A stretch of DNA of 64,000 nucleotides from Patescibacteria group bacterium (GTDB lineage Bacteria; Acidobacteriota; Polarisedimenticolia; Gp22-AA2): contig DASRAN010000075.1 of NCBI GenBank assembly GCA_035638115.1, positions 28,252-92,251 of the forward strand, in the 5' to 3' direction. The position numbers were made by a program, and so were the translations under genes. Every line of letters begins with the position of its first letter. Positions within the stretch are counted from its first letter, which is position 1. The notes beneath the pieces are model-generated. The model had not been told where the DNA came from and did not search any database. It saw only the letters and a program-made list of their open reading frames with translations. Below are positions 5,410 to 31,381 of the stretch, in pieces.

Positions 5410-5416
5410 CGGACGG

Positions 5417-11727: not shown

Positions 11728-13332
11728 ATGCGCCGCCGAGTGCAGTTTCGTTCCCACCGCGTCCGCCTGGCGTGCGTCGCCGCGGTCGTTTTCGTACTCC
11801 TGGTTACGACCCTGTCGGCGGCCGCCACGCCACCGTCGCGCGGCCCCGCGCCGCGGCTCGTGGTGCTGATCGTCCTGGATCAGTTCCGCTCCGACTATCT
11901 CGATCGGTTCGCGTCCCGGTTCGGCGGCGGAGGGTTCCTGCGTCTGGCGCGGGACGGCGCCCGGTTCGACGACTGCGCCTACCCGTACGCGATCACCCAG
12001 ACCTCTCCCGGTCACGCCACCCTCGCGACCGGCACCACGCCCGACCGCCACGGCATCGTGAGCAACGAGTGGCTCGACCGCGCTTCGGGAAAGATGGTCC
12101 TCTCGGTCGAGGACGCCGCCGCTCCCCTCCTGGGCGCCACGCCGGACCAGCCCGGCTGCTCGCCGCGGCGCCTGGTCGGCGACACCCTGGCCGACGAGAT
12201 GCGTCTGGCGACCCAGGGCCGGTCGAAGGTGTTCGGCCTCTCCGTCAAAGCGCGCTCGGCCATTTTCGCCACCGGCCGCGGCGCCAACGGTGCCTTCTGG
12301 TACGACGAGGCGAGCGGCCGGATGATCAGCAGCCGCTATTACGGCGCCGCCCTGCCGGGCTGGGTCGAGGAGTTCAACGCGGCCCGGCCCGCCGATCGGT
12401 ACCTCGGACGCGAGTTCACCGCCGGCGGGGCGCGCGTGGTCGGCCTCGGCGCGCCGGGCGGCGCCCCCGATCGCGCCTACTACGAAGCGCTGGCGAAGAC
12501 GCCGTTCATCCACGACCTGCTGTTCGAGTTCGCGCGCGAGACCGTGCGCCGCGAGGGGTTGGGCGCCGACGACGCGCCCGATTTCCTGTTCGTCGGCCTG
12601 TCCGGGCACGACTATCTCGGGCACCAGGTCGGACCGTACTCCGAAGCGATCGGCGCGATGGCGGCGCGAACCGACGAGCAGATCGCCGGGTTCCTGCGCT
12701 TCCTCGACGAGCGCGTGGGCGCGGGCCGCTACCTCGTCGCCCTCTCCTCCGACCACGGCGTGGCGCCGACGATGGCGCAGGGCGAGACGGCGGGCGTGCC
12801 GGGGCACGCCATCGACACCGTCCGCCTGCGCCGCGCGATGGAGCAGGCGCTGCGCGATCGATTCGACGCGGCCGACGCGATCCACCGGCAGGACGAGCCG
12901 CTCGCGGTCTGGTTCGACGCGGCCGTCCTCGAGCGCCGTCACGCCACGATCTCCGAGGCCGCGCGCGTGGCGGGGGCCGCCGCCGCGGCAACCGACGGGA
13001 TCCTCGGGTTCGTGGGGCCGGGCGGCGCGACCGACCTCGACCGGGTGACGGCGGAGGCCTACCGTCTGAGCACCTATCCGGGGCGCAGCCCCGATCTCTT
13101 CATCGTCCCGCTGCCGTTCGCGTCGGATCGCGCCGCGGCGCCCGCCAACCACGGAACCCCCTGGGGGCACGATGCCCGCGTCCCTCTCCTCTTCTATGGC
13201 CCGGCGTTCAGGTCCGGCGTCTCGCGCGAGGCCTGCACGCCGGCCGATCTGGCGCCGACGCTGGCGGCGGCGCTCGGCATTCCGCCGCCGGCCATGGCGA
13301 CCGGGCGCGTCCTGGAGCGGGCGCTGCGATGA
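11728..13332 (+). CDS. Alkaline phosphatase family protein (type I phosphodiesterase / nucleotide pyrophosphatase-like), secreted
   Basis: 534 aa with a signal peptide. Carries an AlkP-superfamily metal-ligand motif (LDQFRSDY, TQTSPGHATLATG). Divergent from the giant gene. Confidence 0.8.
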   Translation: MRRRVQFRSHRVRLACVAAVVFVLLVTTLSAAATPPSRGPAPRLVVLIVLDQFRSDYLDRFASRFGGGGFLRLARDGARFDDCAYPYAITQTSPGHATLATGTTPDRHGIVSNEWLDRASGKMVLSVEDAAAPLLGATPDQPGCSPRRLVGDTLADEMRLATQGRSKVFGLSVKARSAIFATGRGANGAFWYDEASGRMISSRYYGAALPGWVEEFNAARPADRYLGREFTAGGARVVGLGAPGGAPDRAYYEALAKTPFIHDLLFEFARETVRREGLGADDAPDFLFVGLSGHDYLGHQVGPYSEAIGAMAARTDEQIAGFLRFLDERVGAGRYLVALSSDHGVAPTMAQGETAGVPGHAIDTVRLRRAMEQALRDRFDAADAIHRQDEPLAVWFDAAVLERRHATISEAARVAGAAAAATDGILGFVGPGGATDLDRVTAEAYRLSTYPGRSPDLFIVPLPFASDRAAAPANHGTPWGHDARVPLLFYGPAFRSGVSREACTPADLAPTLAAALGIPPPAMATGRVLERALR

Positions 13333-14732
13333 GAGACCTGCCCGCCGCCGCGCGACGCGCCGCCTTCGTCGCCGCATCCGTCACGGCGTGCGTCGCCGCA
13401 TCCGTCACGGCGTGCGTCGCGGCGTGCGTCGCGGCGCCGATGGCCGCGCTCCTCCTGGCGCGGGCCGCCGATTCCCTTCCGTCCGCCGCCCTCGCCGCGA
13501 CGCGGGAGACGGCCCCGGGCGGGGGCGCGCCGCGCCCGATCCTGATCACCATCGACGACCTGCCGATCGGCCTCGAGCGCCTGCACCCGGATCCCGCCGA
13601 CCGGGAGCGGATCACGAACGGGCTTCTCGCCGCGCTGGCGCGGCACCGGATCCGGGCCGTCGCCTTCGTCATCTGGGGACACGTCGCAGGCGACGCCGAC
13701 CGCGCCCTGCTGGGCCGCTGGCTCGAGGCCGGGCACGAGCTGGGCAACCACACCCGGAGCCACCCCGGCCTGACCAGGACGTCGAAGGACGAGTACCTCG
13801 CCGACGCCGAAGCCGGGCGGGCCGGTCTCCAGTCGCTTCTCGACGCTCGCGGCGCCCGCGTGCGTTTCTTCCGTTTCCCGTACCTGCAGGAGGGAGACAC
13901 GGCGGACAAGCTCGAGGCGGTGCGCCGTTACCTGGAATCGAGCGGCCAGCGCGGCCTTCCGGTGACGATCGACGACGAGGACTGGTCGTTCGAGGCCCCC
14001 TTCCTCGAGGCGGAAGGCCTGCGCGACACGCGGCGCGCCCGGTCAGTCGCCGCCGACTACCAGGCGGCGCTGCGGGCGGAGGTGCGGCACCACGAGGCGA
14101 CCGCCGACGAACTGTTCGGCCGCGTCGTGCCGCAGGTCCTGCTGCTGCACGCCAACGCCATCGGCGCCTCCGAATGGGACCGCCTGTTCACCTGGCTCGA
14201 ACAGACCCACCACCGGTTCGCCGGCGCCGACGAGGTGCTGGCCGACGAGGCGTTCGCGGCGCCGCCCGGATTCGTCGCGCCCTACGGGTGCGGGCTCTGG
14301 GATCGGATCGCGCACCAGCGCGAAGAGGAGGCGATGCGCCGCGACCTCGCGGCGCTCCTCGCCGCCCAGTCGGACGCCTGGACGCGCGGCGACCTCGACG
14401 CTTTCTGCTCGGTCTACGCCGACGACGCGCTCTACCTGGCGCCGAGCGGCGAGGTGCGTGGACGCGCCGCGGTGCTGGAGCGCTATCGCGCCCATTACCC
14501 CGACCGGCAGGCCATGGGAGCGCTGCGGCTCGACATCGAGGAGATCCGGCCGGTCTGGGGGATGGAGGTTCTGCCTTCGGACGACGCGATCCCCGGCGCC
14601 ATCCATGGCGCCACGGTGGTCGCCCGATGGACCCTGACCGACGCGGGCCACAAGGAGACCTCGGGCCGGACCCTTCTCGTCTTTCACCGCGTCCGGAGCC
14701 GATGGGAGATCGTCCAGGACGCTTCGATGTAG
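13329..14732 (+). CDS. Polysaccharide deacetylase (NodB/CE4 domain) fused to a C-terminal NTF2-like (DUF4440/SnoaL-like) domain
   Basis: NodB motifs TIDDLP and HELGNHTRSHP. The C-terminal roughly 120 aa (AAQSDAWTRGDLDAFCSVYADDALYL...) is NTF2-like. The ATG at 13329 overlaps the stop of the phosphatase gene (ATGA). Confidence 0.75.
   Translation: MRDLPAAARRAAFVAASVTACVAASVTACVAACVAAPMAALLLARAADSLPSAALAATRETAPGGGAPRPILITIDDLPIGLERLHPDPADRERITNGLLAALARHRIRAVAFVIWGHVAGDADRALLGRWLEAGHELGNHTRSHPGLTRTSKDEYLADAEAGRAGLQSLLDARGARVRFFRFPYLQEGDTADKLEAVRRYLESSGQRGLPVTIDDEDWSFEAPFLEAEGLRDTRRARSVAADYQAALRAEVRHHEATADELFGRVVPQVLLLHANAIGASEWDRLFTWLEQTHHRFAGADEVLADEAFAAPPGFVAPYGCGLWDRIAHQREEEAMRRDLAALLAAQSDAWTRGDLDAFCSVYADDALYLAPSGEVRGRAAVLERYRAHYPDRQAMGALRLDIEEIRPVWGMEVLPSDDAIPGAIHGATVVARWTLTDAGHKETSGRTLLVFHRVRSRWEIVQDASM
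13375..13440. repeat. 24-bp tandem repeat (2.5 copies) in signal-peptide coding sequence
   Basis: gccgcatccgtcacggcgtgcgtc repeated twice, then a partial copy. It encodes AASVTACVAASVTACVAACVAA. Confidence 0.8.
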
Positions 14733-14740
14733 GAGGCCGC

Positions 14741-16255
14741 GTGCGGCGGATCATGATGGCGATCCTGCTCGCGGGGATCGCCCTGCGTGTCGCCTGGGTC
14801 TGGCGCCCCCTGGATCACCGGATCCGGGCGCCGTGGCGTCAGGCCGACGAAACCCAGATCGCCCGCAACTTCGCGCGCGAGGACCCGAACATCCTCCGGC
14901 CGCGCATCGACTGGCGCCGCGACGGGCCGGGGCTGGTCGAGATGGAGTTCCCTCTCGTCCCCTGGACGGCCGGGATGCTCGACCGCCTCCTCGGCTACCG
15001 GGAGGAGTACCTCCGGGTCCTCTCCTGCCTGCTCGAGATCGGCGGGCTCCTGCTGTTCGCGGGCCTCGCCCGGCGACTCCTCCCCCCGCCGGGCGCCGCG
15101 GCGGCGGTCGGCCTGTACGCCGTCAATCCGCTGCTGATCTACCTGGCCACGGCGATGCAGCCGGAGCCGATGATGCTCTTCCTGTCGCTGGTCGCGATGA
15201 CGCTTCTGGCGCGCTTCGACGAGCGCGGCTCCGCCGCGTCGCTGGTCCTCGCGGGCGCGGCTCTCGGCGGCGCCATCCTGGGCAAGGCGCCCGCCGCCTG
15301 TCTCGGGCTGGTCTTCGCCTGGGTCGTCCTGCGCCGCCTCGGGAGACGCGCCTTCGCCTCGCCCGCGGTCTGGGCCGCCGCCGTCCTGGCCCTCGTGCCG
15401 CCGATTCTCTGGTACCACTGGGCGAAGGGGCTCTTCCTTATATATGGGAACTCGCTGGGGCTGTCGAACGAGTACCCGTTTCTCGGCCTCGACATGCTGC
15501 GCCGGCCGGTCTTCGTGCTGGGTCTGCTGAAGTGGGAGACCCTCGGGGTGGTCACCCCGATCGGCTGGCTGCTGCTTCTTTTCGCCTGGCGCGCGCCGCG
15601 CGCCGCGACCGCGCTGCCCTGCGCCTGGTGGGTCTCGGTCTGGGTCTTCTACCTCGCGGCCGCACGCACCACCGCGGACGACTGGGCCTTCTACTATCAT
15701 TGCGTTTCGGCGGCGCCCGCCTGCCTGCTGATGGGGGCCGGGTTCTCCGCGCTTCTCGTCTCGACGGGGGGGACGAGCCTGAAGCTGCCGCCCGGCGCGC
15801 GGCGCCGGGCGCTCGGCTGGCTGTTCTACTCCGCGACCGTCCTGGCCCTGATCCTGGCGACGGCTGCGCTGCTGCGCGCGCGCGACGGGCGGGAGGATCT
15901 GCGTGACATGCGCGCCTGCGGGCTGCGGTTCCTGGAGCGGATTCCGGAGGGTTCGATGATCGTGGTGCGTGGCGGATCGATCGCCGACGAGGACGGCTTT
16001 CCGACGGCGCACAACCAATCGATGTTCTTCGCCTGGCTCGACCGGCGCGGATTCACCTACGGCAACGAGGAGCTCGCCATCCCGGTCCTCCAGGACATCG
16101 CGCGGCGGGGCGGGCGCTACTGGATCGCCGAGACGTCGGAGCTGCGCGGCGCGATGAGCGCCGCGGCGGCGCAGAGCTTCCATTTCGTGGCGCGGTGCGA
16201 TCCCGGCTACGTCCTCTACGATCTCGGCGCGCCACTGGCGGAGGAGGCCCGATGA
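14741..16255 (+). CDS. GT-C fold glycosyltransferase, family 39/83-like (PMT/ArnT family), paralog 1
   Basis: About 504 aa, polytopic. N-terminal loop with Asp-Glu (RQADETQIARNF). RBS AGGAGG lies 5 bp upstream of the GTG at 14741. The upstream part of the listed 13172..16255 ORF is a shadow frame. Confidence 0.7.
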   Translation: MRRIMMAILLAGIALRVAWVWRPLDHRIRAPWRQADETQIARNFAREDPNILRPRIDWRRDGPGLVEMEFPLVPWTAGMLDRLLGYREEYLRVLSCLLEIGGLLLFAGLARRLLPPPGAAAAVGLYAVNPLLIYLATAMQPEPMMLFLSLVAMTLLARFDERGSAASLVLAGAALGGAILGKAPAACLGLVFAWVVLRRLGRRAFASPAVWAAAVLALVPPILWYHWAKGLFLIYGNSLGLSNEYPFLGLDMLRRPVFVLGLLKWETLGVVTPIGWLLLLFAWRAPRAATALPCAWWVSVWVFYLAAARTTADDWAFYYHCVSAAPACLLMGAGFSALLVSTGGTSLKLPPGARRRALGWLFYSATVLALILATAALLRARDGREDLRDMRACGLRFLERIPEGSMIVVRGGSIADEDGFPTAHNQSMFFAWLDRRGFTYGNEELAIPVLQDIARRGGRYWIAETSELRGAMSAAAAQSFHFVARCDPGYVLYDLGAPLAEEAR

Positions 16256-17745
16256 CCGGTCCGTCCGAGGGCCCGGGAGGGGATCGTCGCGCCGTCCTGG
16301 GCTGCCTCGCGGCGCTGACGCTGCTCGCCGCCTTCGTCCGCCTGGTCGACCTCGGCTGGCAATCGCTCTGGGTCGACGAGTATCTGTGGACCCTCACCGC
16401 GTCTTTGAAATCGCTCTCCGCGATCATCCACCGGCCCGACGGCTATCCCCCGACCATGGCGCTCCTGTTCCGCGCCCTGCAGCGCTCGGGTCTCGGGGCC
16501 GACTGGTGGCTGCGGCTCCCCTCGGCGCTCGCCGGCACGCTGTCGGTCCCGGTCCTGTACGCCGTGGCGCGCCGCGTCGCCCCGCCGGCGACGGCGCTGA
16601 CGGCCGCGGGCCTGCTGGCGATCAATCCGATGGCGGTCTGGTATTCCCAGGAAGCCGGGGCGTACGCCCTGGTGATGCTCTGCGGCCTCGTGGCGACCTG
16701 GTGCCTCCTGCGCCTGCTCGAGGGGGCGGGCCCGGGCACAGCACTGGGCTACGCTCTCGCCGCCGGCGCCGGATTCGGGCTGCATTACTACTTCCTCTTC
16801 CTGCCGATGGCGCATGCCCCGTTCGCGCTGCGTGACGCGCTGGCGAGCCCCGCCCGGCGCCGGACCTGGATCGCCGCCGCGATCCTCGCCGCCCTGGCCA
16901 TCGGCGCCTGGCTGCCGCTGTTCGTCGCCGACGTGCGCGGCCAGCGTGAGCAGGACCGGGGGCAGGAATTCTCCCTGCTGGCGCTTCCTTACACCACGCA
17001 GACCTTCGTCGGCGGCTTCGCGATCGGCCCGCCGGTGCGTCTCATGCATCCCGCCGTGCGCGCCGGCCGGACCCCCTGGAGCGCGTTCGGCGTCGAGACG
17101 CTCTCCTCGGCCGCCGCCATCCTGGTCGCGGCGGCGCTCTTCGTGATCGCCATTCCCGCGCCGCGCGCCGGACGCCGCCTGCTCTTCGCCGCGGCCATCG
17201 TGGTGCCGATCCTGGGTCCCTACCTGAACTCGCTGCTCGGGGTGGGATATCGTCCGCGCTACGCCCTGGTCGCGCTGCCGTATGCGCTGCTCTGGGCGGC
17301 GGGAGGGCTCGAGACCCGCAGGCGCCGACTCGCGATCCTCCTGCTCTCCGCCTTCGTGGTGATCGGCCTCGCGGGTCTGGTGCGCAGCCACGCCCCGAGC
17401 CACCGGCGCGAGGACAACCGCGCCGCCGCCGAGTACGTGGCCCGGGGCGGCGGCGGCGACGCGGTCCTGATCGGCGAAGGCGCCGACCCGTTCGAGCGCT
17501 ACGCTTCCGGTCTGGACCGGCTCGTGGCGCTCGACGCGCCCGACGCGGAAGACGACGCCGCGCTGGGGCGGCGCCTCGGTCCGCTGCTCGCCGGGCGGGG
17601 CGACCTGTGGCTGATCTCGTCGCGCCCCTGGACCGAGGACCCGGAAGGCCGGGTCCCGGCCTGGCTCCGGTCCCACCTCGTCCTCGCGGATCGCGCCCAG
17701 TTCGCCGGCGTGACCGTGGAGCGGTACGCGCGGGGACGTTCGTGA
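16252..17745 (+). CDS. GT-C fold glycosyltransferase, family 39/83-like (PMT/ArnT family), paralog 2
   Basis: About 497 aa with an SLWVDEYLW loop-1 motif. The ATG at 16252 overlaps the paralog 1 stop (ATGA). Confidence 0.7.
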   Translation: MTGPSEGPGGDRRAVLGCLAALTLLAAFVRLVDLGWQSLWVDEYLWTLTASLKSLSAIIHRPDGYPPTMALLFRALQRSGLGADWWLRLPSALAGTLSVPVLYAVARRVAPPATALTAAGLLAINPMAVWYSQEAGAYALVMLCGLVATWCLLRLLEGAGPGTALGYALAAGAGFGLHYYFLFLPMAHAPFALRDALASPARRRTWIAAAILAALAIGAWLPLFVADVRGQREQDRGQEFSLLALPYTTQTFVGGFAIGPPVRLMHPAVRAGRTPWSAFGVETLSSAAAILVAAALFVIAIPAPRAGRRLLFAAAIVVPILGPYLNSLLGVGYRPRYALVALPYALLWAAGGLETRRRRLAILLLSAFVVIGLAGLVRSHAPSHRREDNRAAAEYVARGGGGDAVLIGEGADPFERYASGLDRLVALDAPDAEDDAALGRRLGPLLAGRGDLWLISSRPWTEDPEGRVPAWLRSHLVLADRAQFAGVTVERYARGRS

Positions 17746-19253
17746 CCGGATCGCCGCCACGCGCACCGCGCCGGCAGGCCGCCCTGCTCGCCCTGGTCCT
17801 GATCGGGGGCGGCCTGCTCATGCTCCCGCGGCTCGGCGCGCAGAGCCTGTGGGTCGACGAAGGTCTCACCGTCATCGCCGTCTCCGGCGCGCAGAGCGTG
17901 CCCGATCTCGTCGATCGCGTGCGGACGCTCGACACCCAGCCGCCCGCCTCGCATCTCGTCCTCTATGCCCTGCGCGGCCTTGTGCCGCGCGACGAGTTCG
18001 GCTGGCGATTGTCGTCGTTCCTGCTGTGCGAGGCGGCGATCGTCCTGCTCTGGCTCGCGGCCACGCGCCTCTTCGGCCCGACGGTCGCGATCCTCGCCGC
18101 GGTCGCGGCGCAGTTCTCGCCGTTTCTCGCGTTCTACGCCATGGAAGCGCGCGGCTACGCGCTCTGGCTCATGGCCTGCTGCGGCGCGCTCTATGCGATG
18201 CAGCGCTGGCTGGAGGCGCCCGCCGGATTCGGCTGGGCCGTCGTCTGGGGCCTGGCGAACGCCCTGGGCCTCTGGACCCATCCGTTCCACCTGTTCGCCA
18301 TGGTGATGCAGATGGTGGTGGCGCTCACGGCGATCCTGAAGGGGAGCGTCCCGGCAGGGGTCGCGCGCCGCGCCTTCGGCACCAGCCTCGCGGCGCAAGC
18401 CCTCGCCGTTCTCCTCTTCCTGCCCTGCCTGTTCGCCATCCTGTCGCGCGATCCGATCGGACGCGGCGTCGGCTGGACCCGGAACCCCACGGGCGTCAGC
18501 GTCCTCTATTATCCGTTCGCGCTGGTGTTCGGCTTCTCGTTCGGACCCAGCCTCGGCGAGCTCCATACCGATCCGCTGCGCCTGCTCCTCGGAAAGCACC
18601 TGCTCGCGTCACTGGCCGCGGCGGCGGCGTTCGTGGTCCTGGTGCTGGCGGCGGCGCTTCTCGCGCGTCAGGCCTGGGACGATCCGCGGCGCCGGGCGCT
18701 TCTGACCGGCACCGCGCTCGCGCTCTCGGCGGGGCTCGCCGGTCCCGCGATCTACGTCGTCCTGCGCAGCTTCCCTCTCCTGCCGCGCCACCTGATCTAC
18801 GTCTGGCCCGCGGTCCCGCTGCTCGAGGCGCTGGCCCTGGTGCGACTGCCGCGTCTGCGGCCGGCGCTGCTCGCGGTCCTGGCGCTGCAGGGGCTCGCCC
18901 TGCTCAACCTGCTCTACAACCCGGCGTACGCCAAGGACGACGAGCGCGGCGCGGTGCGCTTCGCGCTCGCCCGTTCGGGAGAGCGACCCGTGGTGCTGGG
19001 CGACGTCGCGCCGATCTACGCGCCGGCCGGGCGCGGGCTCCTGCGGAATCGCACCGACCCGGGTGAGGCCTCCCCGTTCGCCGACGCGACGGACGTCTGG
19101 CTGGCCGACAGCCGCGCGTGGGAGGACCCCGAGGGCCGCTATCGCGCCCGCCTGCAGCGCACCCTCGGCGGCCTGGGTCTTGTCGACGCCGGAGAGGACG
19201 CCTCCTTCCGGGGCGTCGTCCTGCGTCACTGGCGCCGCGGGCCGTCGTCGTGA
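17742..19253 (+). CDS. GT-C fold glycosyltransferase, family 39/83-like (PMT/ArnT family), paralog 3
   Basis: About 503 aa with an SLWVDEGL motif. The GTG at 17742 overlaps the paralog 2 stop (GTGA). Confidence 0.7.
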   Translation: MTGSPPRAPRRQAALLALVLIGGGLLMLPRLGAQSLWVDEGLTVIAVSGAQSVPDLVDRVRTLDTQPPASHLVLYALRGLVPRDEFGWRLSSFLLCEAAIVLLWLAATRLFGPTVAILAAVAAQFSPFLAFYAMEARGYALWLMACCGALYAMQRWLEAPAGFGWAVVWGLANALGLWTHPFHLFAMVMQMVVALTAILKGSVPAGVARRAFGTSLAAQALAVLLFLPCLFAILSRDPIGRGVGWTRNPTGVSVLYYPFALVFGFSFGPSLGELHTDPLRLLLGKHLLASLAAAAAFVVLVLAAALLARQAWDDPRRRALLTGTALALSAGLAGPAIYVVLRSFPLLPRHLIYVWPAVPLLEALALVRLPRLRPALLAVLALQGLALLNLLYNPAYAKDDERGAVRFALARSGERPVVLGDVAPIYAPAGRGLLRNRTDPGEASPFADATDVWLADSRAWEDPEGRYRARLQRTLGGLGLVDAGEDASFRGVVLRHWRRGPSS

Positions 19254-21860: not shown

Positions 21861-22531
21861 CGCGCCGAGACGATCGGGCTCTTGGGGCTCAGACCGTCCG
21901 CGTCGCGAACGTAGACGCGCCCGCACCGCTCGCAGGTCAGCTCGCGCGCGCCGGCGGCGCCGGTCGCGGCCCCGCCCCGCGGCGCGGTGGCGTCCGGGCC
22001 GCGCAGGAGCGGATGCCCGCAGGCCGAGAGCCAGCCGGCGACGCGCGCCGGGTTGCCGACGACGAGGGCGTGCGGCGGCACCTCGCGGGTGACGACCGAG
22101 CCCATGCCGACCATGGCGAATTCGCCCAGGAGGACGCCCGGACCGATGGTGGCGTTGGCGCCGATGGTCACGCCGCGGCGCACGCGGGTCAGGAGCGTCT
22201 CCTCGGTCGGGTCGGAGGTCTCGAGGCCGGTCAGATCGGGCCTCCCGGAACGCGGAAAGCGATCGTTGGTGAACACCGTGTGCGCCGACAGCATGCAGAA
22301 GTCCTCGATCGCCACGCCGGCGCAGATGTAGACCGAGGCGTTGATCTTGACGTAGTTGCCGATCACGACGTCGTAGGCGACGTAGCTCTTCTCGCCGACG
22401 ATGCAGTCGTGACCGATGCGCGCGCCGCGACGGATGTGGACGCCGTCCCAGACACGCGTGCCGGAGCCCAGGATCACCCCCTCCTCGACCAGCGCGGTGG
22501 GGTGCACCCAGGCGGGGGCGCCGCCGCTCAT
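21857..22531 (-). CDS. Sugar N-acetyltransferase, left-handed beta-helix (hexapeptide) family, WbpD/PglD-like, with a Cys-rich C-terminal tail
   Basis: Hexapeptide repeats (IGHDCIVGEKSYVAYDVVIGNYVKI...VVGNPARV). The tail reads ACGH...CERCG. The ATG at 22531 overlaps the stop of the upstream dehydrogenase. Confidence 0.75.
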   Translation of the reverse strand: MSGGAPAWVHPTALVEEGVILGSGTRVWDGVHIRRGARIGHDCIVGEKSYVAYDVVIGNYVKINASVYICAGVAIEDFCMLSAHTVFTNDRFPRSGRPDLTGLETSDPTEETLLTRVRRGVTIGANATIGPGVLLGEFAMVGMGSVVTREVPPHALVVGNPARVAGWLSACGHPLLRGPDATAPRGGAATGAAGARELTCERCGRVYVRDADGLSPKSPIVSAR

Positions 22532-24787: not shown

Positions 24788-26031
24788 GCACGGCCTCCGA
24801 TGGGGCCCGCTCCCTTGCGGGGCGGACCGGATGGTTGCGCCGCGACCGCGGCCGCGGGATCGAAATCTTCGGGCCTCGTCCCGAGACCCAGGCGAAACAG
24901 CACGGCGTCGAGGATCCGGCCGCTGGCCCGCCCGTCCCCGAACGGGCTGGGGTAGGGCGGCTCCCCCGCCCGCGTAGCCTGTGCCTCCAGATGGCGCCGC
25001 AGCTCGGCGAGGATCCTGTCCGGCCCGGTTCCGACCAGCATATTACTCCCCGTCTCCACCCCTTCGGGCCGCTCGGTGGTCTCCCGCGCCACCAGCACCG
25101 GGACTCCGAGGGTCGGGGCCTCCTCCTGGATGCCGCCCGAGTCGGTCAGGGCCACCCGGGCCCGGGCCAGGAGATCGACGAACGGAATGTAGGGCAGCGG
25201 GTCGAGCAGGTGCACGTTCGGGAGCCCGGAAAGAAGACGCCGGGCCGGCTCCTGGACGCGCGGATTGCGGTGCACGGGGTAGACGAAGCGGGCCCGCGGG
25301 TAGAGCCGCGCCGCGCTCGCGATCGCCTGCAGCACCTGCTCCAGCGGGGACGGGCCGGAGGAGCCCAGCGGCGCGATCCAGTTCTCGCGGCGATGCAGGG
25401 TGATCAGGACCAGCGGCTCCCCTTCACGCAGCGGGACGTCGCGCACTCCGTGCGCCGCCCGCAGATCGGCGCGCGCCAGGGTGGTGAGCAGGCTGTCGAT
25501 GACGGTGTTCCCGGTGACCAGGATTTCGGCGCGCGGCACCCCTTCGCGCACCAGGTTCGCGGCGCTCTGGGGCGTGGCGGCGAGGTGCAGGTCGGTCACC
25601 GTGCTCAGCATCCGGCGGTTGGCCTCCTCGGGCCAGGGATGGAAGCGGTTGAAGCTGCGCAGACCGGCCTCGACGTGCGCCACGGCGATCCGCTCGTGGA
25701 AGGCCGCCAGACCGGCGGCGAAGGCGCTGGTCGTGTCCCCCTGCACCACGACGAGGGCCGGCCGGTCACGCGCGTACAGCTCCGCGATGCGCGGGATGAC
25801 CCGGCAGACGATCTCGTTGAGCGACTGGTCGGGACGCATGATGTCGAGGTCGTCGTCCGGGGCGATGCCGAAGGGGCCGAGGATCTGGTCGACCATCTCG
25901 CGGTGCTGTCCGGTGACCGCCAGCCGGACCCGCAGCCGCGGCTCCGCGGCGAGCGCCTGGACGACCGGGAACAGCTTGATCGCCTCCGGCCGCGTGCCGA
26001 GGACGACCAGGACCAGGGGCCGCTCAGCCAA
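24784..26031 (-). CDS. wecB: UDP-N-acetylglucosamine 2-epimerase (non-hydrolysing), WecB/WbpI family
   Basis: LVVLGTRPEAIKLFPV...VVQGDTTS...HVEAGLRS motifs. The start at 26031 is TTG, so the true start is uncertain. Confidence 0.85.
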   Translation of the reverse strand: MAERPLVLVVLGTRPEAIKLFPVVQALAAEPRLRVRLAVTGQHREMVDQILGPFGIAPDDDLDIMRPDQSLNEIVCRVIPRIAELYARDRPALVVVQGDTTSAFAAGLAAFHERIAVAHVEAGLRSFNRFHPWPEEANRRMLSTVTDLHLAATPQSAANLVREGVPRAEILVTGNTVIDSLLTTLARADLRAAHGVRDVPLREGEPLVLITLHRRENWIAPLGSSGPSPLEQVLQAIASAARLYPRARFVYPVHRNPRVQEPARRLLSGLPNVHLLDPLPYIPFVDLLARARVALTDSGGIQEEAPTLGVPVLVARETTERPEGVETGSNMLVGTGPDRILAELRRHLEAQATRAGEPPYPSPFGDGRASGRILDAVLFRLGLGTRPEDFDPAAAVAAQPSGPPRKGAGPIGGRA

Positions 26032-27012
26032 GCGCGCGCTCCTGGCGCATGCGGCGCACGACGGCTCCCGGCGCGGCGCCGACCGCCCGGGCGTGCTCCT
26101 CGAGCGTGACGACGTCGTGGGTCGCGGTGAGACGGCGCAGGACGTCCTCGACGAACTCGACCTTGGCGGCCGTGGTCAGGTCCATGCCGGGGAAGAAGGC
26201 CAGCTCCTTCACCTGATCGCAGCCGAGAAAATCGAGCGGATGGAGGAGGAACGACGGCGTGACGCCGGAGAGGCGGCAGAGGGTCAGGGCCGTTTTCAGG
26301 TGGAGCATCGCCGCGGAGCGTGAGAACCGCATCAGATAGAGCAGGTAGCTCATGTGAAACGGCACCCGGACCACCGGCATGGTGGTGACCGGGATCTCGA
26401 CCAGCCTGTGGTCGTCGACCGACCAGGTGTAGGGGCGGATCGGCTGCAGCCCGTCGCGGAACGAGCCGAACAGCTTGCGGCGCTTCTCGCGCTCGGCGTC
26501 CGGCATGCCGCGGCTCTTCCAGAAGTAGTAGGCGCGCGCGAACGGCCCCAGGAAGGTCGGCAGCGTGCTGCAGTCGTACTGGTAGCCGCGGCTCACCAGG
26601 ACCCGGAGCGTGTCCGGGCTGAGACTGTAGCCGGGTCCGCGGAAGCCGACCGGCCGGCGCCCGGTCGCCTTCTCGATCGCCTCCTCGGCCCGCGCCACCT
26701 CGTCCTCGATCTCGGGACGCGTGTAGAGGTGGAACCAGGGTTCGTGGCGGAACGAGTGGTTGCCGATCTCGTGTCCCGCGGCGGAGAGCGCGCCGAGCGC
26801 CGCCGCGTTCTTCTCGAGCGCGGCGTCCTGCCCGACGACGAACAGGGTGGCGCGCAGCCCCTGACGTCGGAGCACCTCGAGCATGATCTTCGCGAGGGTG
26901 TCGAGATAGGACGGCAGCGCCTCCCAGCCCGGGTCGCCGTGAATCTTCATGTACGACCAGAGATTGTCGAGGTCGACCCCGAGGCTCAGGAGCGGGCGCG
27001 TCCCTTTCACGT
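26024..27012 (-). CDS. Polysaccharide deacetylase (NodB/CE4)
   Basis: LFVVGQDA...GHEIGNHSFRHE motifs. The GTG at 27012 overlaps the stop of the upstream gene (GTGA). The 5' 4 kb of the listed 26024..31087 ORF is shadow sequence antisense to the 29024..31381 gene. Confidence 0.75.
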
Positions 27013-28761
27013 CTTCTCCGTGCGCGCGTCGTGCGCGGCGATCGTCTCGCCCGCGACGCGTGGCGGCCTGGGTGCGGTCGCGTCGGCCTGTGGCGGCGGC
27101 GCGCCCGCACGGATCCGCAGTCCCAGGAGCTCGCGCAGGAGCCCCAGATGGCTCCAGATGGTCCGCGCGATCTTCATCTTCGACTCGCCGAACAGGCGCG
27201 ACTCCAGCGTCGTCGGGTATTCCACCACGCGCCCGCCGGCCAGACGCAGGCGGATCAGGATCTCGGCCACCCCCAGGAATCCCCCGTGCTCGATGCGGAG
27301 CCCCTCGACCGCCTCCTTGCGGTAGACGCGGAAGCAGCTGGTGTAGGTGTGGATCGATTTCCCCAGGAGCGCGCTGTACATGCGTGACAGGGAGCGCGAC
27401 AGGAACAGACGCCAGGGCGGGATGTTGAAGACCCTGCCCTGCGGATGATACGGGGAGGCCGTCACCAGATCGGCCTCGGCGATCATCGGGATCATGTTGG
27501 CCAGATCGTTCGGATCGTAGGAGCAGTCGCAGTCGATCGAGGCGACCACCGGGGTCGGAGCGTTCCGCAGCCCGGTCATGATCGCGGCGGCCACGCCGGC
27601 GTTCTTCGGGTGACGCAGGATGCGGCAGTCGGGAAAATCGGCGAACCGCTCCCGAAGACGGTCCCAGGTGGCGTCGCTGCTGCCGTCGTCCACCAGGTTG
27701 AAGAAGATCCGGTAACGCGTCCCGAGACGACGCCTGAGATCGAGGAGCGTGCCGCGCATGTACGGGATGTTCGCTTCTTCGTTGTACAGCGGCACCACCA
27801 GGGTCACCGGGGGCCGGTCGGCCGCCGCCGGCTCCTCGGCCCGGATCTCGATCGGCCGCTCGACGTGCGCCGGCGCCTCGGGACGGTCGCGCCACGGCAG
27901 GCCGAGATAGTCGCCGACCGGCTGGAACCGATAGGTGCGGAAATACTCCTCGAACACGTCGCGCGTCTTCCCGAGACTGCGGTACTGGCGGATGCGCTGC
28001 AGGCGGGAGATGCCGCGGATCTGCGGCTGGTCGCGATCGATCTCCCAGGGCATGAAGTAGAAGACGATCGGCGTGCGGCGCTTCCGGCTCCACCAGGCCA
28101 CCGCCTCGCGCAGCAGGACGTGCGGGAACTGGCGGACGTAGTTGCCACCGGAGAACGGGACACGCAGTCCGCCGGCGCTCACGGTCGAGACCGGCAGCTC
28201 CCAGATCGTCCGGGTGCCGGCGGAATGGCGGTGCTGGTGCGTCTCGAACATGCGCGGGTCGCCGGCGAAGCGGCGCAGGATCGGGTTGACGCTCGAGTCG
28301 TAGAGGTAACCCTCCTCGACCAGCACGTCGAGGACCCAGAGCTCGTGGCGCCGCATGATCCAGCGCGGGTGGCGATAGCCGAGGATCCGGTTCGAGCCGG
28401 CCGCCTCGAGCGCCTCCTTGGCGCGCTGCAGCTCCTCGCGCAGCTCCTCGGGGTGCGGCAGCATTCCCTTGACGCCGCCGCGGGGCCAGTAGCCGCGGCT
28501 GGCGATCTCGTGCCCGGCGTCGCGGATCATCCGGACCACTTCCGGCTGGCGCTCGGCGATCCAGCCGAGCACGAAGAAAGTGGCGGTGACCTGGTGCGCG
28601 GCCAGGAGGCCGAGCACCTCCTTGAGGCTGTTCTCGAGACGCGACTCGATCCGCGTCCAGTGCTTGCGCGCCACCACCCCGTCGAGGGAGGCGCCGTGGA
28701 AATAGTCCTCGACCGACACGGTCAGGATGTGCGGATGCTTCGGCTCGTCGGCCACTCCCAC
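27007..28761 (-). CDS. Fusion protein: N-terminal polysaccharide deacetylase (PEP-CTERM/XrtA-locus DUF3473-type) + C-terminal GT2 polyprenyl-phosphate glycosyltransferase (DPM1/ArnC/GtrB-like)
   Basis: N-terminus HILTVSVEDYFH...ATFFVLGW (deacetylase). C-terminus VTLVVPLYNEEANI...LVDDGSSDAT...DCDCSYDP (GT2 DxD/DAD). RBS AGGTGGGAG precedes the GTG at 28761. First gene of the 8-gene minus-strand operon. Confidence 0.75.
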   Translation of the reverse strand: MGVADEPKHPHILTVSVEDYFHGASLDGVVARKHWTRIESRLENSLKEVLGLLAAHQVTATFFVLGWIAERQPEVVRMIRDAGHEIASRGYWPRGGVKGMLPHPEELREELQRAKEALEAAGSNRILGYRHPRWIMRRHELWVLDVLVEEGYLYDSSVNPILRRFAGDPRMFETHQHRHSAGTRTIWELPVSTVSAGGLRVPFSGGNYVRQFPHVLLREAVAWWSRKRRTPIVFYFMPWEIDRDQPQIRGISRLQRIRQYRSLGKTRDVFEEYFRTYRFQPVGDYLGLPWRDRPEAPAHVERPIEIRAEEPAAADRPPVTLVVPLYNEEANIPYMRGTLLDLRRRLGTRYRIFFNLVDDGSSDATWDRLRERFADFPDCRILRHPKNAGVAAAIMTGLRNAPTPVVASIDCDCSYDPNDLANMIPMIAEADLVTASPYHPQGRVFNIPPWRLFLSRSLSRMYSALLGKSIHTYTSCFRVYRKEAVEGLRIEHGGFLGVAEILIRLRLAGGRVVEYPTTLESRLFGESKMKIARTIWSHLGLLRELLGLRIRAGAPPPQADATAPRPPRVAGETIAAHDARTEKT

Positions 28762-28987: not shown

Positions 28988-29016
28988 TTGACAGCCCCGC
29001 CCGCGCCTCTTATCGT
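28988..29016 (+). promoter_or_regulatory. Sigma70-like promoter TTGACA-N17-TATCGT
   Basis: TTGACA at 28988..28993 and TATCGT at 29011..29016. The ATG at 29024 lies only 8 bp past the -10, so the transcript would be leaderless or have a very short leader. Confidence 0.5.
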
Positions 29017-29023
29017 CCCGGCC

Positions 29024-31381
29024 ATGTCCGAGGGCGGTCCAGCCAGGCGCGACCCGGTTTTCCCCGCCATCGGGGTCATCAGCCTCGCGGTCCTGATCCT
29101 GGAGCTGGCCCTGACGCGGCTCTTCTCCGCCACCCTGCACTACCACTTCGCCTTCATGGCCATCTCGCTGGCCCTGCTCGGCTCCGGGAGCGCCGGGGTG
29201 GCGATCTACCTGGCGCAGGACCGGCTGCGCCTTGCGGGATGGGAGACCTGGGGGGCCCGTGCCGCCGTCCTCTTCGCGTTGACGACGGTCACGGCCCTGC
29301 TCGCCGTGCTCCTGCTGTCCCCGGGGGTCGAGGGGACCGCCGGCAACGGGGCCCGCATCGCCGCCATCTACGTGGCCTGCGTGCTGCCCTTCTTCTGCGC
29401 CGGCTGCGCCGTCACGCTCGCGGTGATGAGCCGCGCGGCGGCGATCGCCCGGCTGTATCGATTCGACCTGGCGGGGGCCGCCGCCGGCTGCCTGCTCCTG
29501 GTCCCGCTGCTCGATCGGATCGGCGGCGTGAACACGATCCTGGTCGTGCCGGTCGCCGCCGCCTGCGGCGGGGCGCTCTTCGGACGGGCGCCGGGGGCCG
29601 CGCCCCGGGAGGCGCGGCGCGCGCTGGCGGTCGCCGCCGCGGCCGCGGCTCTTTTGGGCCTGAACCTCGCGACCGGCTGGATCGACGTGCGCCAGGCCAA
29701 GGGAACGCGGGAGACGCACGTGCTGCTGTCGCGCTGGAACTCGTTCTCCCGCGTGACGGTGACGCCCGCCGAGGGGTCGGGGCTCGAGATCCGGATCGAC
29801 GCCGACGCCTCCACCCTCGTCACCGCCGGCGCGGGCGAGGTGTCGCGCCACCCCGAGGCGCGCGATCGCCTGACCGCGCTGCCCTACGCCGTCATGCGGC
29901 GGCCGAGCGTGCTGGTGATGGGACCGGGCGGCGGGGACGACGTGATGGTGGCGCGCTTCCACGACGCCCGCGCCGTCACCGCCGTCGAGATCAATCCGAT
30001 CATCGCGCGCGACATCATGTCGAGCGAGCCATATCTCTCCTTCTCCGGCGGGCTCTTCCGGCGCCCCGGCGTCCGCCTCGTGGTCGACGACGCGCGCAGC
30101 TTCATCAGCCGCTCGGAGGAGCGCTTCGATCTGATCCAGGGGACCATGGTCGACACCTGGGCGGCGACCGCGGCCGGCGCCTTCGCCCTCACCGAGAACC
30201 ACCTCTACACGGTGGAGGCGTTCCAGGACTACGACCGCCACCTCGCCGACGACGGCGTCCTCTCCCTGACCCGCTGGTACTTCGAGCCGCCCGACCAGGT
30301 CCTGCGTCTGGTGTCGCTGGCGCGCGAGGTGATGCGCCGCCGCGGCGTGACCGACCCGGCGTCGCACCTGGTGATCGTCCGGGATCGCGCCCGCAGCGAC
30401 CCGCGCACGCCGGCGATGTTCCTCTACAAGAAGAGCGCCTTCACCGATGAGGAGGTGAAGGCGCTCGAGGGTTTCGCCTCCTGGCACCAGTTCACCGTCC
30501 TCTACTCGCCGGCCACGCGACCGGCGAACGATTTCACGCGCCTCGCCGAGGCGGAGCGTCCGGAGACCGTCTGGTCCGCCTACCCGACGAACATCGCCCC
30601 GACGACCGACGACAGCCCGTTCTTCTTCAACAGCGTGCGGCCGGGCGACCTGCTCCACCTGGCGGACAAGGCGCCGGAGTGGCGCAAGACCAACGTCGGC
30701 ACGCTCATCCTGTTCCTGCTGTTCGCGCTGGTGGCGGCCCTGGTCGCGGTCCTGGTGGTCGGCCCGCTCCTCCTCGCGCGCCGGCGCGCCGCCGTGCCCG
30801 CCGGCGCCGCTCCCTGGCTGGCCTACTTCCTCTGTCTCGGGGCCGGCTTCATCCTCGTCGAGGTGGCGCTGGTGCAGCGCTTCATCCTCTTTCTCGGGCC
30901 GCCGGTCTATGCCCTGACCGTGGTGCTGTTCTCGCTTTTGCTCTTCGGCGGTCTCGGGAGCGGCCTGTCGGCGCGGATCGCGGGCGAGCGCGTCGCCCGG
31001 CGGCTGGGGCTCGTCCTGCTGGCGGTCTGCGGCGCCGCCGTGCTGGCCGCGTTCGCGCTCTCGCCGCTGGTCCACGCCCTGGTGCACCTGGGACGCCCCG
31101 CGCGCATCGCCCTGTCGGTCGCCCTGATCGCCCCGCTCGCCACCTTGATGGGGATGCCGATGCCGACGGGTCTGCGGATGCTGCGGGCGGCGGCCCCGGA
31201 TCTGCTTCCCTGGGCCTGGGGGCTCAACGGGGCGGCGTCGGTGCTCGGCTCGGTCGGCGCGCTGATCATCGCCATCGCCGCCGGGTTCGACGCGACCCTG
31301 CTCGCCGGGGCGGCGTTCTATCTCGCCGGCTGGATAGCGCTCGCCCGCGTCAGCTCTTCAGCCGCACGCGCGCCAGGTTGA
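29024..31381 (+). CDS. Polytopic membrane protein with embedded spermidine-synthase-like (aminopropyltransferase/SAM-MTase fold) domain
   Basis: 785 aa. Multiple TM helices flank a central VLVMGPGGGDD...VEINP...VVDDARSF...DLIQGTMVDTW...GVLSL block, which reads as a spermidine synthase fold. Confidence 0.7.
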   Translation: MSEGGPARRDPVFPAIGVISLAVLILELALTRLFSATLHYHFAFMAISLALLGSGSAGVAIYLAQDRLRLAGWETWGARAAVLFALTTVTALLAVLLLSPGVEGTAGNGARIAAIYVACVLPFFCAGCAVTLAVMSRAAAIARLYRFDLAGAAAGCLLLVPLLDRIGGVNTILVVPVAAACGGALFGRAPGAAPREARRALAVAAAAAALLGLNLATGWIDVRQAKGTRETHVLLSRWNSFSRVTVTPAEGSGLEIRIDADASTLVTAGAGEVSRHPEARDRLTALPYAVMRRPSVLVMGPGGGDDVMVARFHDARAVTAVEINPIIARDIMSSEPYLSFSGGLFRRPGVRLVVDDARSFISRSEERFDLIQGTMVDTWAATAAGAFALTENHLYTVEAFQDYDRHLADDGVLSLTRWYFEPPDQVLRLVSLAREVMRRRGVTDPASHLVIVRDRARSDPRTPAMFLYKKSAFTDEEVKALEGFASWHQFTVLYSPATRPANDFTRLAEAERPETVWSAYPTNIAPTTDDSPFFFNSVRPGDLLHLADKAPEWRKTNVGTLILFLLFALVAALVAVLVVGPLLLARRRAAVPAGAAPWLAYFLCLGAGFILVEVALVQRFILFLGPPVYALTVVLFSLLLFGGLGSGLSARIAGERVARRLGLVLLAVCGAAVLAAFALSPLVHALVHLGRPARIALSVALIAPLATLMGMPMPTGLRMLRAAAPDLLPWAWGLNGAASVLGSVGALIIAIAAGFDATLLAGAAFYLAGWIALARVSSSAARAPG

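Follow-up and report, generated by a model that had tools for sequence, protein, structure and literature searches.

A candidate lipid-carrier system for amino-sugar glycosylation of the cell envelope, encoded by two convergent bacterial operons

Gene content and operon structure

We analysed a 64,000-nucleotide stretch of a bacterial contig (GenBank assembly GCA_035638115.1, contig DASRAN010000075.1, positions 28,252 to 92,251 of the forward strand), referred to below as the window. A cluster in its first half encodes a nucleotide-sugar pathway, a fusion of a CE4 (polysaccharide deacetylase) domain with a GT2 glycosyltransferase, an FAD-dependent oxidoreductase and four GT-C glycosyltransferases. 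The cluster contains a conserved enzyme core without a characterised member, and the locus is an uncharacterised variant of a known logic. At ∼72% G+C the window gives lists of raw open reading frames (ORFs) that are mostly noise; genes were called by third-position GC (GC3 frame plot) together with start-codon mapping, which yielded 15 tightly packed genes, G1–G15 (Table 1).

The genes form two convergent operons, G1–G6 on the plus strand (11728–20521) and G13–G7 on the minus strand (28755–20469); at their 3′ ends G6 and G7 share 53 bp. G14 and then G15 lie after the two operons. Nine gene junctions overlap by 4–8 bp, which therefore points to translational coupling. The G2–G6/G7–G11 arrangement recurs whole in two related loci (L091 and L092) at 48–81% protein identity, and the G13–G7 operon with adjoining GT-C genes recurs in L005, L008–L010 and L089. 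Because nine junctions overlap and the arrangement recurs in relatives, the clustering of these genes is not due to chance.

The interval 13329–31381 had been described earlier, by a model that read the sequence, as a candidate Arn/Lgm-like aminosugar modification island. All the enzyme classes named in this original prediction are present where it had placed them, as judged by Pfam and NCBIfam, and the profile search that it had proposed found three CE4 domains, three PMT_2 proteins, one GT87 protein, and GFO, DegT, 2-epimerase and GT2 proteins. Its description left out the FAD enzyme gene G7, which lies inside this interval, as well as G1.

Table 1. Genes of the locus in window coordinates. 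Pfam scores are given as bits/gathering cut-off and NCBIfam scores as bits against the model cut-off.
Gene	Position	Strand	Assignment and leading features
G1	11728–13332	+	PafA-like alkaline phosphatase/phosphodiesterase; Phosphodiest 131.7 bits; N-terminal signal or anchor (periplasmic)
G2	13329–14732	+	Exported CE4; Polysacc_deac_1 59.9/23.1; C-terminal SnoaL/DUF4440 domain
G3	14741–16255	+	GT-C, PMT_2 64.2/26.1 bits; subfamily separate from G4/G5
G4	16252–17745	+	GT-C, PMT_2 42.1/26.1 bits; W-V-D-E after the first transmembrane helix (TM1); paralog of G5
G5	17742–19253	+	GT-C, PMT_2 28.0/26.1 bits; W-V-D-E after TM1
G6	19250–20521	+	GT87 (DUF2029) GT-C, 62.5/25 bits; ∼10 or more hydrophobic segments
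G7	20469–21860	−	FAD-dependent oxidoreductase, amine-oxidase/protoporphyrinogen-oxidase/phytoene-desaturase fold; Amino_oxidase 92.4 bits
G8	21857–22531	−	Left-handed beta-helix N-acetyltransferase, WlbB-like; Hexapep (Pfam)
G9	22528–23535	−	Gfo/Idh/MocA NAD-dependent sugar dehydrogenase; GFO_IDH_MocA (Pfam)
G10	23561–24787	−	DegT-family pyridoxal-phosphate sugar aminotransferase; DegT 280.7 bits
G11	24784–26031	−	Non-hydrolysing UDP-GlcNAc 2-epimerase, WecB/WbpI family; Epimerase_2 348.5 bits
G12	26024–27010	−	Cytoplasmic CE4; Polysacc_deac_1 72.1 bits; member of the conserved core
G13	27007–28755	−	N-terminal CE4 (Polysacc_deac_1) and DUF3473, C-terminal Glycos_transf_2 (Pfam)
G14	29024–31381	+	Polytopic membrane protein with a central spermidine-synthase-fold domain
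G15	31350–32264	−	10-TM EamA/DMT transporter; EamA 133.9 bits; YedA 227.6 vs 270

The fusion protein and its companion deacetylases

The start of G13 agrees with that of the database protein P0001. An ArnC-like and an ArnD-like part had been predicted in one polypeptide, and G13 is indeed such a fusion; the order needed correction, as the deacetylase is N-terminal and the GT2 domain C-terminal. Polysacc_deac_1 scores 50.2 bits in the N-terminal part. More than 3000 homologs were found at E ≤ 1e-10, and both the CE4/DUF3473 and the GT2 Pfam domains were present in 120 of the 120 that were listed.

In a phmmer search against the PDB, the best match of the GT2 domain was the Pyrococcus dolichol-phosphate mannose synthase (DPMS) 5mlz (E 2e-22, over residues 316–540), with which it shares an R-x-x-GESK segment ('SRLFGESKMK' in G13 aligned to 'IRARGESKLK'). 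ArnC (9hwj/9bhc/8vxh) and then the GtrB-type sll0501 (5ekp) followed, and chondroitin synthase was a marginal match (E 3e-5). Judged by these nearest solved relatives, the domain groups with the polyprenyl-phosphate glycosyltransferases (DPMS, ArnC, GtrB) and not with the processive synthases, in line with the original prediction, and it is predicted to load polyprenyl phosphate with a sugar taken from a nucleotide donor. On the NCBIfam models G13 stays below the cut-offs for ArnC (NF007986, 54.2 vs 529), PpgS (NF058614, 35 vs 370) and DPhHxTase_Halo (46.3 vs 375). None of the proteins came near an NCBIfam cut-off for Arn or PpgS; the mode of action may resemble that of Arn, but the locus is not a member of that system.

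G13 has neither a TM helix nor a signal peptide, and both its domains would therefore work at the cytoplasmic face. Its N-terminal domain gives 243.5 bits on TIGR03006, the model of the XrtA/PEP-CTERM-locus deacetylase, below the cut-off of 276.2. The second metal-binding His of this CE4 domain is absent: the motif reads H-E-I-A-S-R, and the position is not conserved across 16 homologs.

Two further NodB-type deacetylases had been predicted, and both G12 and G2 carry Polysacc_deac_1 above the cut-off. In G12 the metal motif, NHSFRH, is the canonical H-S-x-x-H, and the protein has no signal peptide or TM segment. G12 and the fused CE4 domain are therefore predicted to be cytoplasmic, as ArnD and NaxD are. 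G2 likewise has canonical motifs (TIDD and H-T-x-x-H, the latter as NHTRSH), and an N-terminal hydrophobic segment; in L091, L092 and L093 the gene immediately before the G3 homolog is a homolog of G2, at 53–57% identity. No ArnD or ArnT NCBIfam model matched the locus proteins at E ≤ 0.001, and the best NCBIfam matches of G12 and G13 were TIGR03006 and sporulation or peptidoglycan deacetylases.

The nucleotide-sugar module

Four genes of the minus-strand operon, G8–G11, encode enzymes of the classes that act on nucleotide-linked amino sugars. G8 matches best the PDB entries 3mqg/3mqh (E 7e-34), titled 'lipopolysaccharides biosynthesis acetyltransferase', which we take to be WlbB, the 3-N-acetyltransferase of the Bordetella diacetamido pathway; WxcM-like and QdtC 3-amino-sugar N-acyltransferases come next. 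The protein is thus WlbB-like, a putative WlbB/WbpD-type acetyltransferase of the 3-amino group on a nucleotide sugar.

G9 is a probable UDP-GlcNAc 3-dehydrogenase. It scores 109 bits on NF040723, the archaeal UDP-GlcNAc 3-dehydrogenase model, which is below the cut-off, and matches 3q2k (E 1e-22) and 3q2i (E 1e-20), both presumably WlbA, with inositol and other dehydrogenases scoring higher. G11 reaches 408.7 bits on TIGR00236 (cut-off 210). A UDPG_MGDP_dh domain, the mark of a WbpA-type UDP-GlcNAc 6-dehydrogenase, was not found among the proteins scanned across the window; genes with this domain accompany the fusion in 11 distant loci. Because the cluster encodes no 6-dehydrogenase, the sugar is probably not a uronic acid, and the likely product is UDP-GlcNAc3NAc or its 2-epimer.

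The FAD-dependent oxidoreductase

G7 scores 353 bits on NF005560, above the cut-off of 252; the name of this model is 'hypothetical protein'. With the AlphaFold2 (AF2) model of G7 (pLDDT 87), the best Foldseek matches were protoporphyrinogen oxidase (PPO; 2ivd, E 6e-26) and phytoene desaturase (PDS; 5mog), with TM-scores of 0.74–0.76, and amine oxidases ranked behind them. PPO and PDS are monotopic enzymes of the membrane whose substrates are hydrophobic. As the modelled fold resembles these enzymes of hydrophobic, membrane-dissolved substrates, it would fit an enzyme that acts on a lipid-linked intermediate.

Two other assignments were considered for G7 and rejected. As a UDP-galactopyranose mutase it gave no GLF Pfam match, and this enzyme ranks only 42nd in the Foldseek list, far behind PPO and PDS. 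As HpnE it scored 72.6 bits against a cut-off of 283.

The GT-C glycosyltransferases

The original prediction spoke of a triple ArnT-like array. Three PMT_2 proteins are present, while the relatedness of G3 to the other two had been overstated: G4 and G5 align from end to end at 28% identity and are true paralogs, and the similarity between G3 and G4 is marginal. The acidic motif after TM1 reads 'WVDEYLW' in G4, 'WVDEGLT' in G5 and 'W-x-DEAF' in the cluster-7 orthologs; in G3 it reads 'RQADET', where the alignment is less certain. Among 18 sequences, at least 90% keep D39 of G5, which falls opposite the Asp of 'LDMRH' when aligned with ArnT 5ezm. This structure is also the only meaningful PDB match, a weak one (E 0.003, 19.4 bits), of the family profile that contains G5, and phmmer searches with G3 or G6 as single sequences brought up no meaningful PDB match. 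The PMT_2 scores above the gathering cut-off, the D(E) after TM1 and the profile that matches only ArnT in the PDB agree with the earlier assignment of the GT-C paralogs as glycosyltransferases. A polyprenyl-phosphate amino sugar would be the donor of G3–G6, and the acceptors named in the original prediction (lipid A, lipopolysaccharide (LPS) core or proteins) are pure analogy.

In an acidobacterial metagenome contig (L095, 796–17277), six or seven G3-, G4- and G6-like GT-C genes are arrayed in 18 kb. Large arrays of GT-C paralogs seem to be typical of this acidobacterial lineage.

G1 overlaps the start of G2 by 4 bp and is probably an accessory gene and the first of the plus-strand operon. 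It scores 360 bits on the NCBIfam PafA model, below the cut-off of 650, and has an N-terminal hydrophobic segment at amino acids 14–32. In L092 the G1 homolog lies 2.6 kb upstream of the G2 homolog; the linkage of G1 is therefore loose.

A conserved core in distant bacteria

A scan at one genome per species gave 80 loci that encode the fusion, and the 59 loci of at least 12 kb were compared with the window proteins by tblastn. The fusion is accompanied by a G12-type CE4 gene in 47 of the 59 and by a G7-type flavoprotein gene in 45. The DegT, GFO and Hex genes are present in 31–35 and the epimerase gene in 33. The counts for the CE4 and FAD genes therefore define the core as the fusion, the G12-type CE4 and the G7-type FAD enzyme. 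This core is spread over at least seven phylum-level groups; going by the genome labels, it occurs in Acidobacteriota, Myxococcota/delta-proteobacteria, Planctomycetota, Gemmatimonadota, Fibrobacterota, Betaproteobacteria (Ideonella, Rubrivivax) and Candidatus Multivoradales.

The ORFs neighbouring the core were clustered and then searched with profiles for GT-C and flippase families; the counts that follow refer to 58 loci and, for GT-C genes, to a distance of ≤10 kb from the fusion. PMT_2- or GT87-type GT-C genes were observed in 21 of the 58 loci. Nineteen of these were found by the GT-C profile, nine of them with the GT-C gene ≤400 bp from the fusion, and L082 and L078 were added. Several subfamilies are involved: a ∼520-residue 'W-x-DEAF' family (11 loci), the G3 type (L075 and L034), GT87 (L082), another PMT_2 family (L078) and weak GT-C-like proteins in Gemmatimonadota (L051, L052 and L065). 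In Myxococcales L082 the G6 homolog (GT87 78.3 bits) lies directly upstream of the fusion. The repeated immediate adjacency in unrelated lineages supports the link between GT-C genes and the core.

Flippase-like genes of the MprF-type LPG_synthase_TM family, to which the putative flippases HexF and GpgF belong, lie beside the core in 8 of the 58 loci. In Ideonella (L078), an LPG_synthase_TM gene and then a PMT_2 gene, both on the opposite strand, come after the fusion, FAD and CE4 genes.

L075, L034, L099 and L103 have a G3 homolog next to the fusion or to the pair of FAD and CE4 genes; the last two of these loci came from a metagenome scan with G3. In L103 the G3-type GT-C, FAD and CE4 genes follow one another on the same strand, and the order in L099 is FAD, CE4, G3-type. 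In the sequence covered there (L103, 9953–13889; L099, 46–4213), the FAD and G12-type CE4 pair stands beside the G3-type PMT_2 gene with no fusion, and this pair may be a sub-module independent of the fusion. Downstream of the pair, L103 also encodes a glucose/sorbosone-dehydrogenase–cytochrome c fusion, a second PMT_2 protein and a Wzx-like protein. Where no PMT_2 or GT87 gene was found near the core, large polytopic membrane proteins of the DUF6798 (three loci) or DUF6077 (one locus) family were seen, which could be GT-C-like transferases (L021, 9799–12138; L046, 15891–17531; L074, 18318–19841; L029, 18920–21157).

A proposed pathway and its alternatives

On balance, we think it somewhat more likely than not that these genes specify a lipid-carrier system of the 'three-component' type, which would add amino sugars to the cell envelope outside the cytoplasm. 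An Arn/Lgm/Flm-like logic is suggested because the core is conserved with GT-C genes and MprF-type flippase-like genes nearby. In such a pathway, going by family membership, G9, G10 and G8 would turn UDP-GlcNAc into UDP-GlcNAc3NAc, which G11 may 2-epimerise to the manno form. The GT2 domain of G13, given its solved relatives and predicted topology, would load the sugar on polyprenyl phosphate at the cytoplasmic face, and the fused CE4/DUF3473 part together with G12 would remove the N-acetyl group(s), exposing free amine(s). G7, whose conservation suggests a place in the pathway, might carry out a redox step on the lipid-linked intermediate. The lipid-linked sugar would then be flipped, for which the window offers only two candidates, G15 (the EamA protein) and the TM bundles in G14. 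The GT-C enzymes G3–G6 would then move it onto an acceptor in the periplasm, which may be LPS, another glycan or a protein, and the exported CE4 G2, perhaps with the phosphodiesterase G1, may act there as a tailoring enzyme.

A further proposal, which we offer tentatively and rate as rather doubtful, is that the trio of the fusion, the second cytoplasmic CE4 and the PPO/PDS-like FAD enzyme represents a widespread uncharacterised pathway. It would make a new polyprenyl-phosphate-linked donor, a doubly de-N-acetylated and/or FAD-oxidised 2,3-diamino sugar, that dedicated GT-Cs install on the envelope; in the lineage of the window, G14 might alkylate the exposed amine.

Several observations weigh against a lipid-carrier amino-sugar system at this locus. 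The FAD enzyme in the conserved core is not explained by any Arn-like scheme. The chemistry of the fused CE4 domain may differ from that of a classic deacetylase, because the second metal-binding His is missing. G10 is not specifically WbpE-like: its match to WbpE 3nu7 (E 6e-34) stands behind those to perosamine-type C4 aminotransferases, and similarity does not settle its regiochemistry. In some loci (e.g. L051, L052, L056 and L078) the core occurs without the DegT, GFO and Hex genes, and the donor sugar is therefore not fixed across the family. Some two-thirds of the related loci have no GT-C gene within 10 kb, and the surroundings of several are of the exopolysaccharide (EPS) or PEP-CTERM kind, with genes for Wzy, MurJ-like, GT4 and asparagine-synthase proteins. 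An LPG_synthase_TM-type flippase was searched for in the window and not found, and no flippase can be assigned there. A full-text literature search for DUF3473 returned nothing, and no experiment on any member of the fusion family was found. As regards the original prediction, its Arn/Lgm/Flm-like logic agrees with the enzyme classes, the type of GT2 domain and the cytoplasmic CE4s; it is not borne out by the Arn and PpgS models, whose cut-offs were not reached, nor does it account for the FAD enzyme.

The notion of two deacetylases for two acetamido groups was considered as a general rule and rejected, as both CE4 domains persist in loci without nearby DegT, GFO and Hex genes.

We also considered that the cluster performs nucleotide-sugar tailoring for a polysaccharide or a 'linking sugar', with a functionally separate GT-C operon. 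The CE4s would then deacetylate a UDP-diacetamido sugar or an undecaprenyl-diphosphate-linked repeat, and the GT2 would extend a lipid-diphosphate-linked glycan. The model here is the Wbp/Vim linking-sugar pathway of Porphyromonas gingivalis and Tannerella forsythia, in which the CE4 protein VimE is proposed to remove the C-2 acetyl group and whose gene set (the Wbp enzymes, VimE, the FemAB-like VimA and the Asn-synthase-like WbpS) is linked to PEP-CTERM-type and EPS loci (PMC7468200). The window shares with it putative Wbp-type diacetamido-sugar enzymes and CE4 proteins (VimE was likened to G12/G13 by description), and TIGR03006-type deacetylases, related to the N-terminal domain of G13 (243.5 bits on that model), occur in such loci. 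In addition, a 56%-identical G13 homolog (L001) adjoins PEP-CTERM proteins, UDP-sugar dehydrogenases and an ATP-grasp gene, another fusion (L003) lies near Wzy, MurJ-like and GT4 genes, and asparagine-synthase-like genes accompany the fusion in 10 loci.

Other observations speak against such tailoring at this locus. All solved relatives of the G13 GT2 domain are polyprenyl-monophosphate glycosyltransferases, and GT-C and MprF-type flippase-like genes recur beside the core, whereas the Vim pathway has no DPM1-like GT2 or GT-C step. No Wzx, Wzy or EPS export gene is present in the 64-kb window, and no exosortase, PEP-CTERM, FemAB-like (VimA) or Asn-synthase (WbpS) gene was found among the window proteins scanned; WbpA is missing as well. 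For these reasons we regard tailoring of this kind as unlikely here. Some distant homologs do lie in EPS contexts, and the fusion family is therefore not bound to one pathway. Searches of the literature for DUF3473, TIGR03006, ArnC–ArnD fusions and this gene set returned no characterised member, as had been predicted for this gene combination, and the Wbp/Vim pathway is a closer precedent, for diacetamido-sugar enzymes together with a CE4 deacetylase, that the original prediction had overlooked.

A still less probable alternative is an amino-glycolipid end product, as in the GpgSDF system of Pseudomonas aeruginosa, which makes GlcN-phosphatidylglycerol, and the HexSDF system of Clostridioides difficile. 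The fusion would glycosylate a membrane lipid, the CE4s would expose the amine and a flippase would move the cationic lipid outward; this product would not be a donor for GT-C enzymes. Operons of synthase, deacetylase and MprF-like flippase are experimentally established (PMC11483062, PMC10128005), the LPG_synthase_TM family occurs beside the core in the eight loci mentioned, and most related loci lack a GT-C gene within 10 kb. Against this, HexS is annotated as MGDG-synthase/MurG-like and not as a DPM1-like GT2, whereas the G13 domain aligns with DPMS, ArnC and the GtrB-type sll0501. The end product of these systems is a cationic or zwitterionic membrane glycolipid made without a GT-C, whereas the window and its relatives have four GT-C genes fixed next to the pathway, and in L078 a PMT_2 gene comes directly after the flippase-like one; an LPG_synthase_TM gene is absent from the window. 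The DPM1-type GT2, together with the lack of Wzx, Wzy, exosortase, FemAB-like and Asn-synthase genes, therefore disfavours both of these alternatives at this locus.

Mere adjacency, in which the GT-C array would use other donors (polyprenyl-phosphate-mannose or -glucose made elsewhere) and the synteny would be inherited within one acidobacterial lineage, accords with the great abundance of arrayed GT-C genes in these genomes (as in L095) and with the single polyprenyl-phosphate GT2 encoded for four GT-Cs, and is nonetheless the most improbable of the three, since different GT-C subfamilies independently adjoin the core in unrelated phyla, in nine loci at ≤400 bp, and in L099 and L103 a G3-type gene stands in one string with those for the FAD enzyme and the CE4.

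Comparison with characterised systems

The proposed lipid-carrier system can be set beside several known ones. The ArnBCADTEF pathway, which puts L-Ara4N on lipid A in Escherichia coli and Salmonella, also uses a dehydrogenase and a DegT aminotransferase, an N-acylation and a GT2 (ArnC) that loads undecaprenyl phosphate; the cytoplasmic CE4 ArnD then removes the N-acyl group, the lipid is flipped and the GT-C ArnT transfers the sugar. ArnC is among the best solved relatives of G13, and ArnT is the sole PDB match of the GT-C profile. The two differ in that G13 gives only 54 bits on the ArnC model (cut-off 529) and that the sugar of the window would be hexosamine-derived, probably 2,3-diamino, whereas that of Arn is a pentose. 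The window also has the GT2–CE4 fusion, a second CE4, a conserved FAD oxidoreductase and four GT-Cs, and it has no small flippase of the ArnE/F type.

Bordetella LgmABC and Francisella FlmF2/NaxD/FlmK, which place GlcN or GalN on lipid A, and mycobacterial PpgS/Rv3779, which places GalN on arabinogalactan, combine a GT2 polyprenyl-phosphate-HexNAc synthase, an N-deacetylation and the GT-C transfer of a free-amine hexosamine. The order of synthase, deacetylation and GT-C transfer is the same as proposed for the window. Unlike G13, their GT2 and deacetylase are separate proteins, and these systems use plain GlcNAc or GalNAc, with no WlbB/DegT/GFO module and no FAD enzyme. G13 is far from the PpgS cut-off (35 vs 370 bits); Lgm, Flm and Nax were set beside the window by description only.

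In Rhizobium, one polyprenyl-phosphate-sugar synthase, RgtE, serves several co-encoded ArnT-like GT-Cs, RgtA/B/C/D, at different positions of LPS. It is a precedent for several GT-Cs on one donor, although the Rgt donor is galacturonic acid, which is anionic and needs no deacetylase.

The three-component systems, namely GtrA/GtrB/Gtr* and the GT136 pentofuranose systems, consist of a donor synthase, a flippase and a GT-C, act in the periplasm after polymerisation and may include auxiliary enzymes that act on the lipid-linked sugar (PMC11127046). The GtrB-type sll0501 is among the solved relatives of G13. In contrast to the window, these systems transfer neutral sugars or pentofuranoses and have no deacetylases, and their GtrA- or MATE-type flippases were not found in the window. 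Four features set the locus apart from all the systems compared: the synthase–deacetylase fusion, the second CE4, the conserved flavoprotein and the diacetamido-sugar input.

The attachment of free-amine sugars to the envelope through a lipid carrier, as in Arn, Lgm, Flm/Nax and PpgS/Rv3779, is a main bacterial route to lower the surface charge and to resist cationic peptides and polymyxins, and its examples come mostly from pathogens. The module described here would be related to these but distinct. Phyla of soil and sediment (Acidobacteriota, Myxococcota, Planctomycetota, Gemmatimonadota, Fibrobacterota) commonly have it, as do cultured Burkholderiales. Its characterisation would give a function to DUF3473 and to the 'hypothetical' flavoproteins of NF005560/PRK07233, could bring to light an envelope sugar and a lipid-linked-sugar reaction that are both new, and would offer a way into the many orphan GT-C genes of the PMT_2 and GT87 families in these phyla. 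A few cultured carriers of the core, among them Ideonella or Rubrivivax relatives of L078/L061, Acidobacteria bacterium Mor1 (L046) and Chloracidobacterium, make the system experimentally tractable.

Genes adjoining the operons: G14 and G15

The original prediction included a membrane protein with a spermidine-synthase fold. The fold is supported by structure prediction and Foldseek; the link to the locus is weak, as G14 stands at this position only in the window and in its closest relative, L089. G14 did not reach family membership on Pfam Spermine_synth (16.4 vs 22.9) or PRK03612 (39 vs 472 bits). Its AF2 model (pLDDT 82) has a SpeE-like beta-hairpin and Rossmann domain between two TM bundles, and the top 50 Foldseek matches in the PDB were all aminopropyltransferases, led by 1uir (E 1e-7), an entry that phmmer also matches (E 2e-4). 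As modelled, G14 has the spermidine-synthase/aminopropyltransferase fold. The family alignment, from more than 4000 homologs of which the named ones are mainly from Blastocatellia, is highly conserved, with an invariant GPGGG and an invariant D377. For the catalytic motif of SpeE, which we take to be D-S-x-D-P, the corresponding region reads T-M-V-D-T-W, in which the second Asp (D377) alone is invariant; the full motif is not present in G14.

As a component of the core, G14 was rejected: no homolog was found in L008–L087, it is absent from this position in L005 and L008–L010, and in L088 (Blastocatellia) the homolog lies beside GT4 genes. Its functional link to the pathway is weak and the association is lineage-specific. 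In L005, a relative at 80% identity, an unrelated 887-residue Spermine_synth membrane protein, with no detectable similarity to G14, and a 485-residue protein without a Pfam match are encoded at 2460–6590, ∼5 kb from the fusion. Two unrelated membrane SpeE-like genes thus lie near the same cluster in sister lineages.

The homolog of G15 lies directly upstream of the fusion and in the same direction in L005 and L008–L010, and was not seen in distant loci. G15 is a candidate flippase only, with a weak link.

Origin and setting of the window

The genome is labelled 'Patescibacteria group bacterium'. Since the window has 72% G+C and the closest named relatives of its proteins are in metagenome-assembled genomes of Candidatus Polarisedimenticolia and Acidobacteriota (79–81% identity), this label is probably a binning or labelling error. 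A relative labelled 'Verrucomicrobiia' (L009) has the same synteny and may be mis-binned too.

A genomic island, as the original prediction had called the region, was rejected. The G+C content is flat, the flanks are housekeeping genes and there is no mark of horizontal acquisition; the flanking EamA, His-phosphatase, GST, DUF4139 and GAF kinase genes keep their synteny in relatives. The rest of the window is ordinary chromosome and includes dnaX–ybaB–recR, the signal recognition particle (SRP) RNA, a tRNA, and genes for a class II ribonucleotide reductase, thiamine-phosphate synthase and two-component systems.

The bacterial small SRP RNA (73 bits; 48099–48198, plus strand) immediately precedes dnaX, overlapping the ORF at 48093–50150 at its 5′ end. 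The tRNA (44939–45025, plus strand) is between the class II ribonucleotide reductase gene and a Band_7 gene; a cobalamin riboswitch upstream of this B12-dependent reductase was not found at the Rfam gathering score. Two very large, presumably secreted proteins with repeated MopE-type Cu-binding motifs are encoded on the minus strand. One, of 1356 amino acids with a malectin domain (7580–11650), is immediately upstream of G1; the other, of 1882 amino acids (53897–59545), has a subtilase domain and a PQQ beta-propeller. At the edge of the window, a 1105-residue TPR-CHAT protein (59838–63155, plus strand), unrelated to the locus, is convergent with a zf-HC2 (anti-sigma-type) protein (63116–64000, minus strand).

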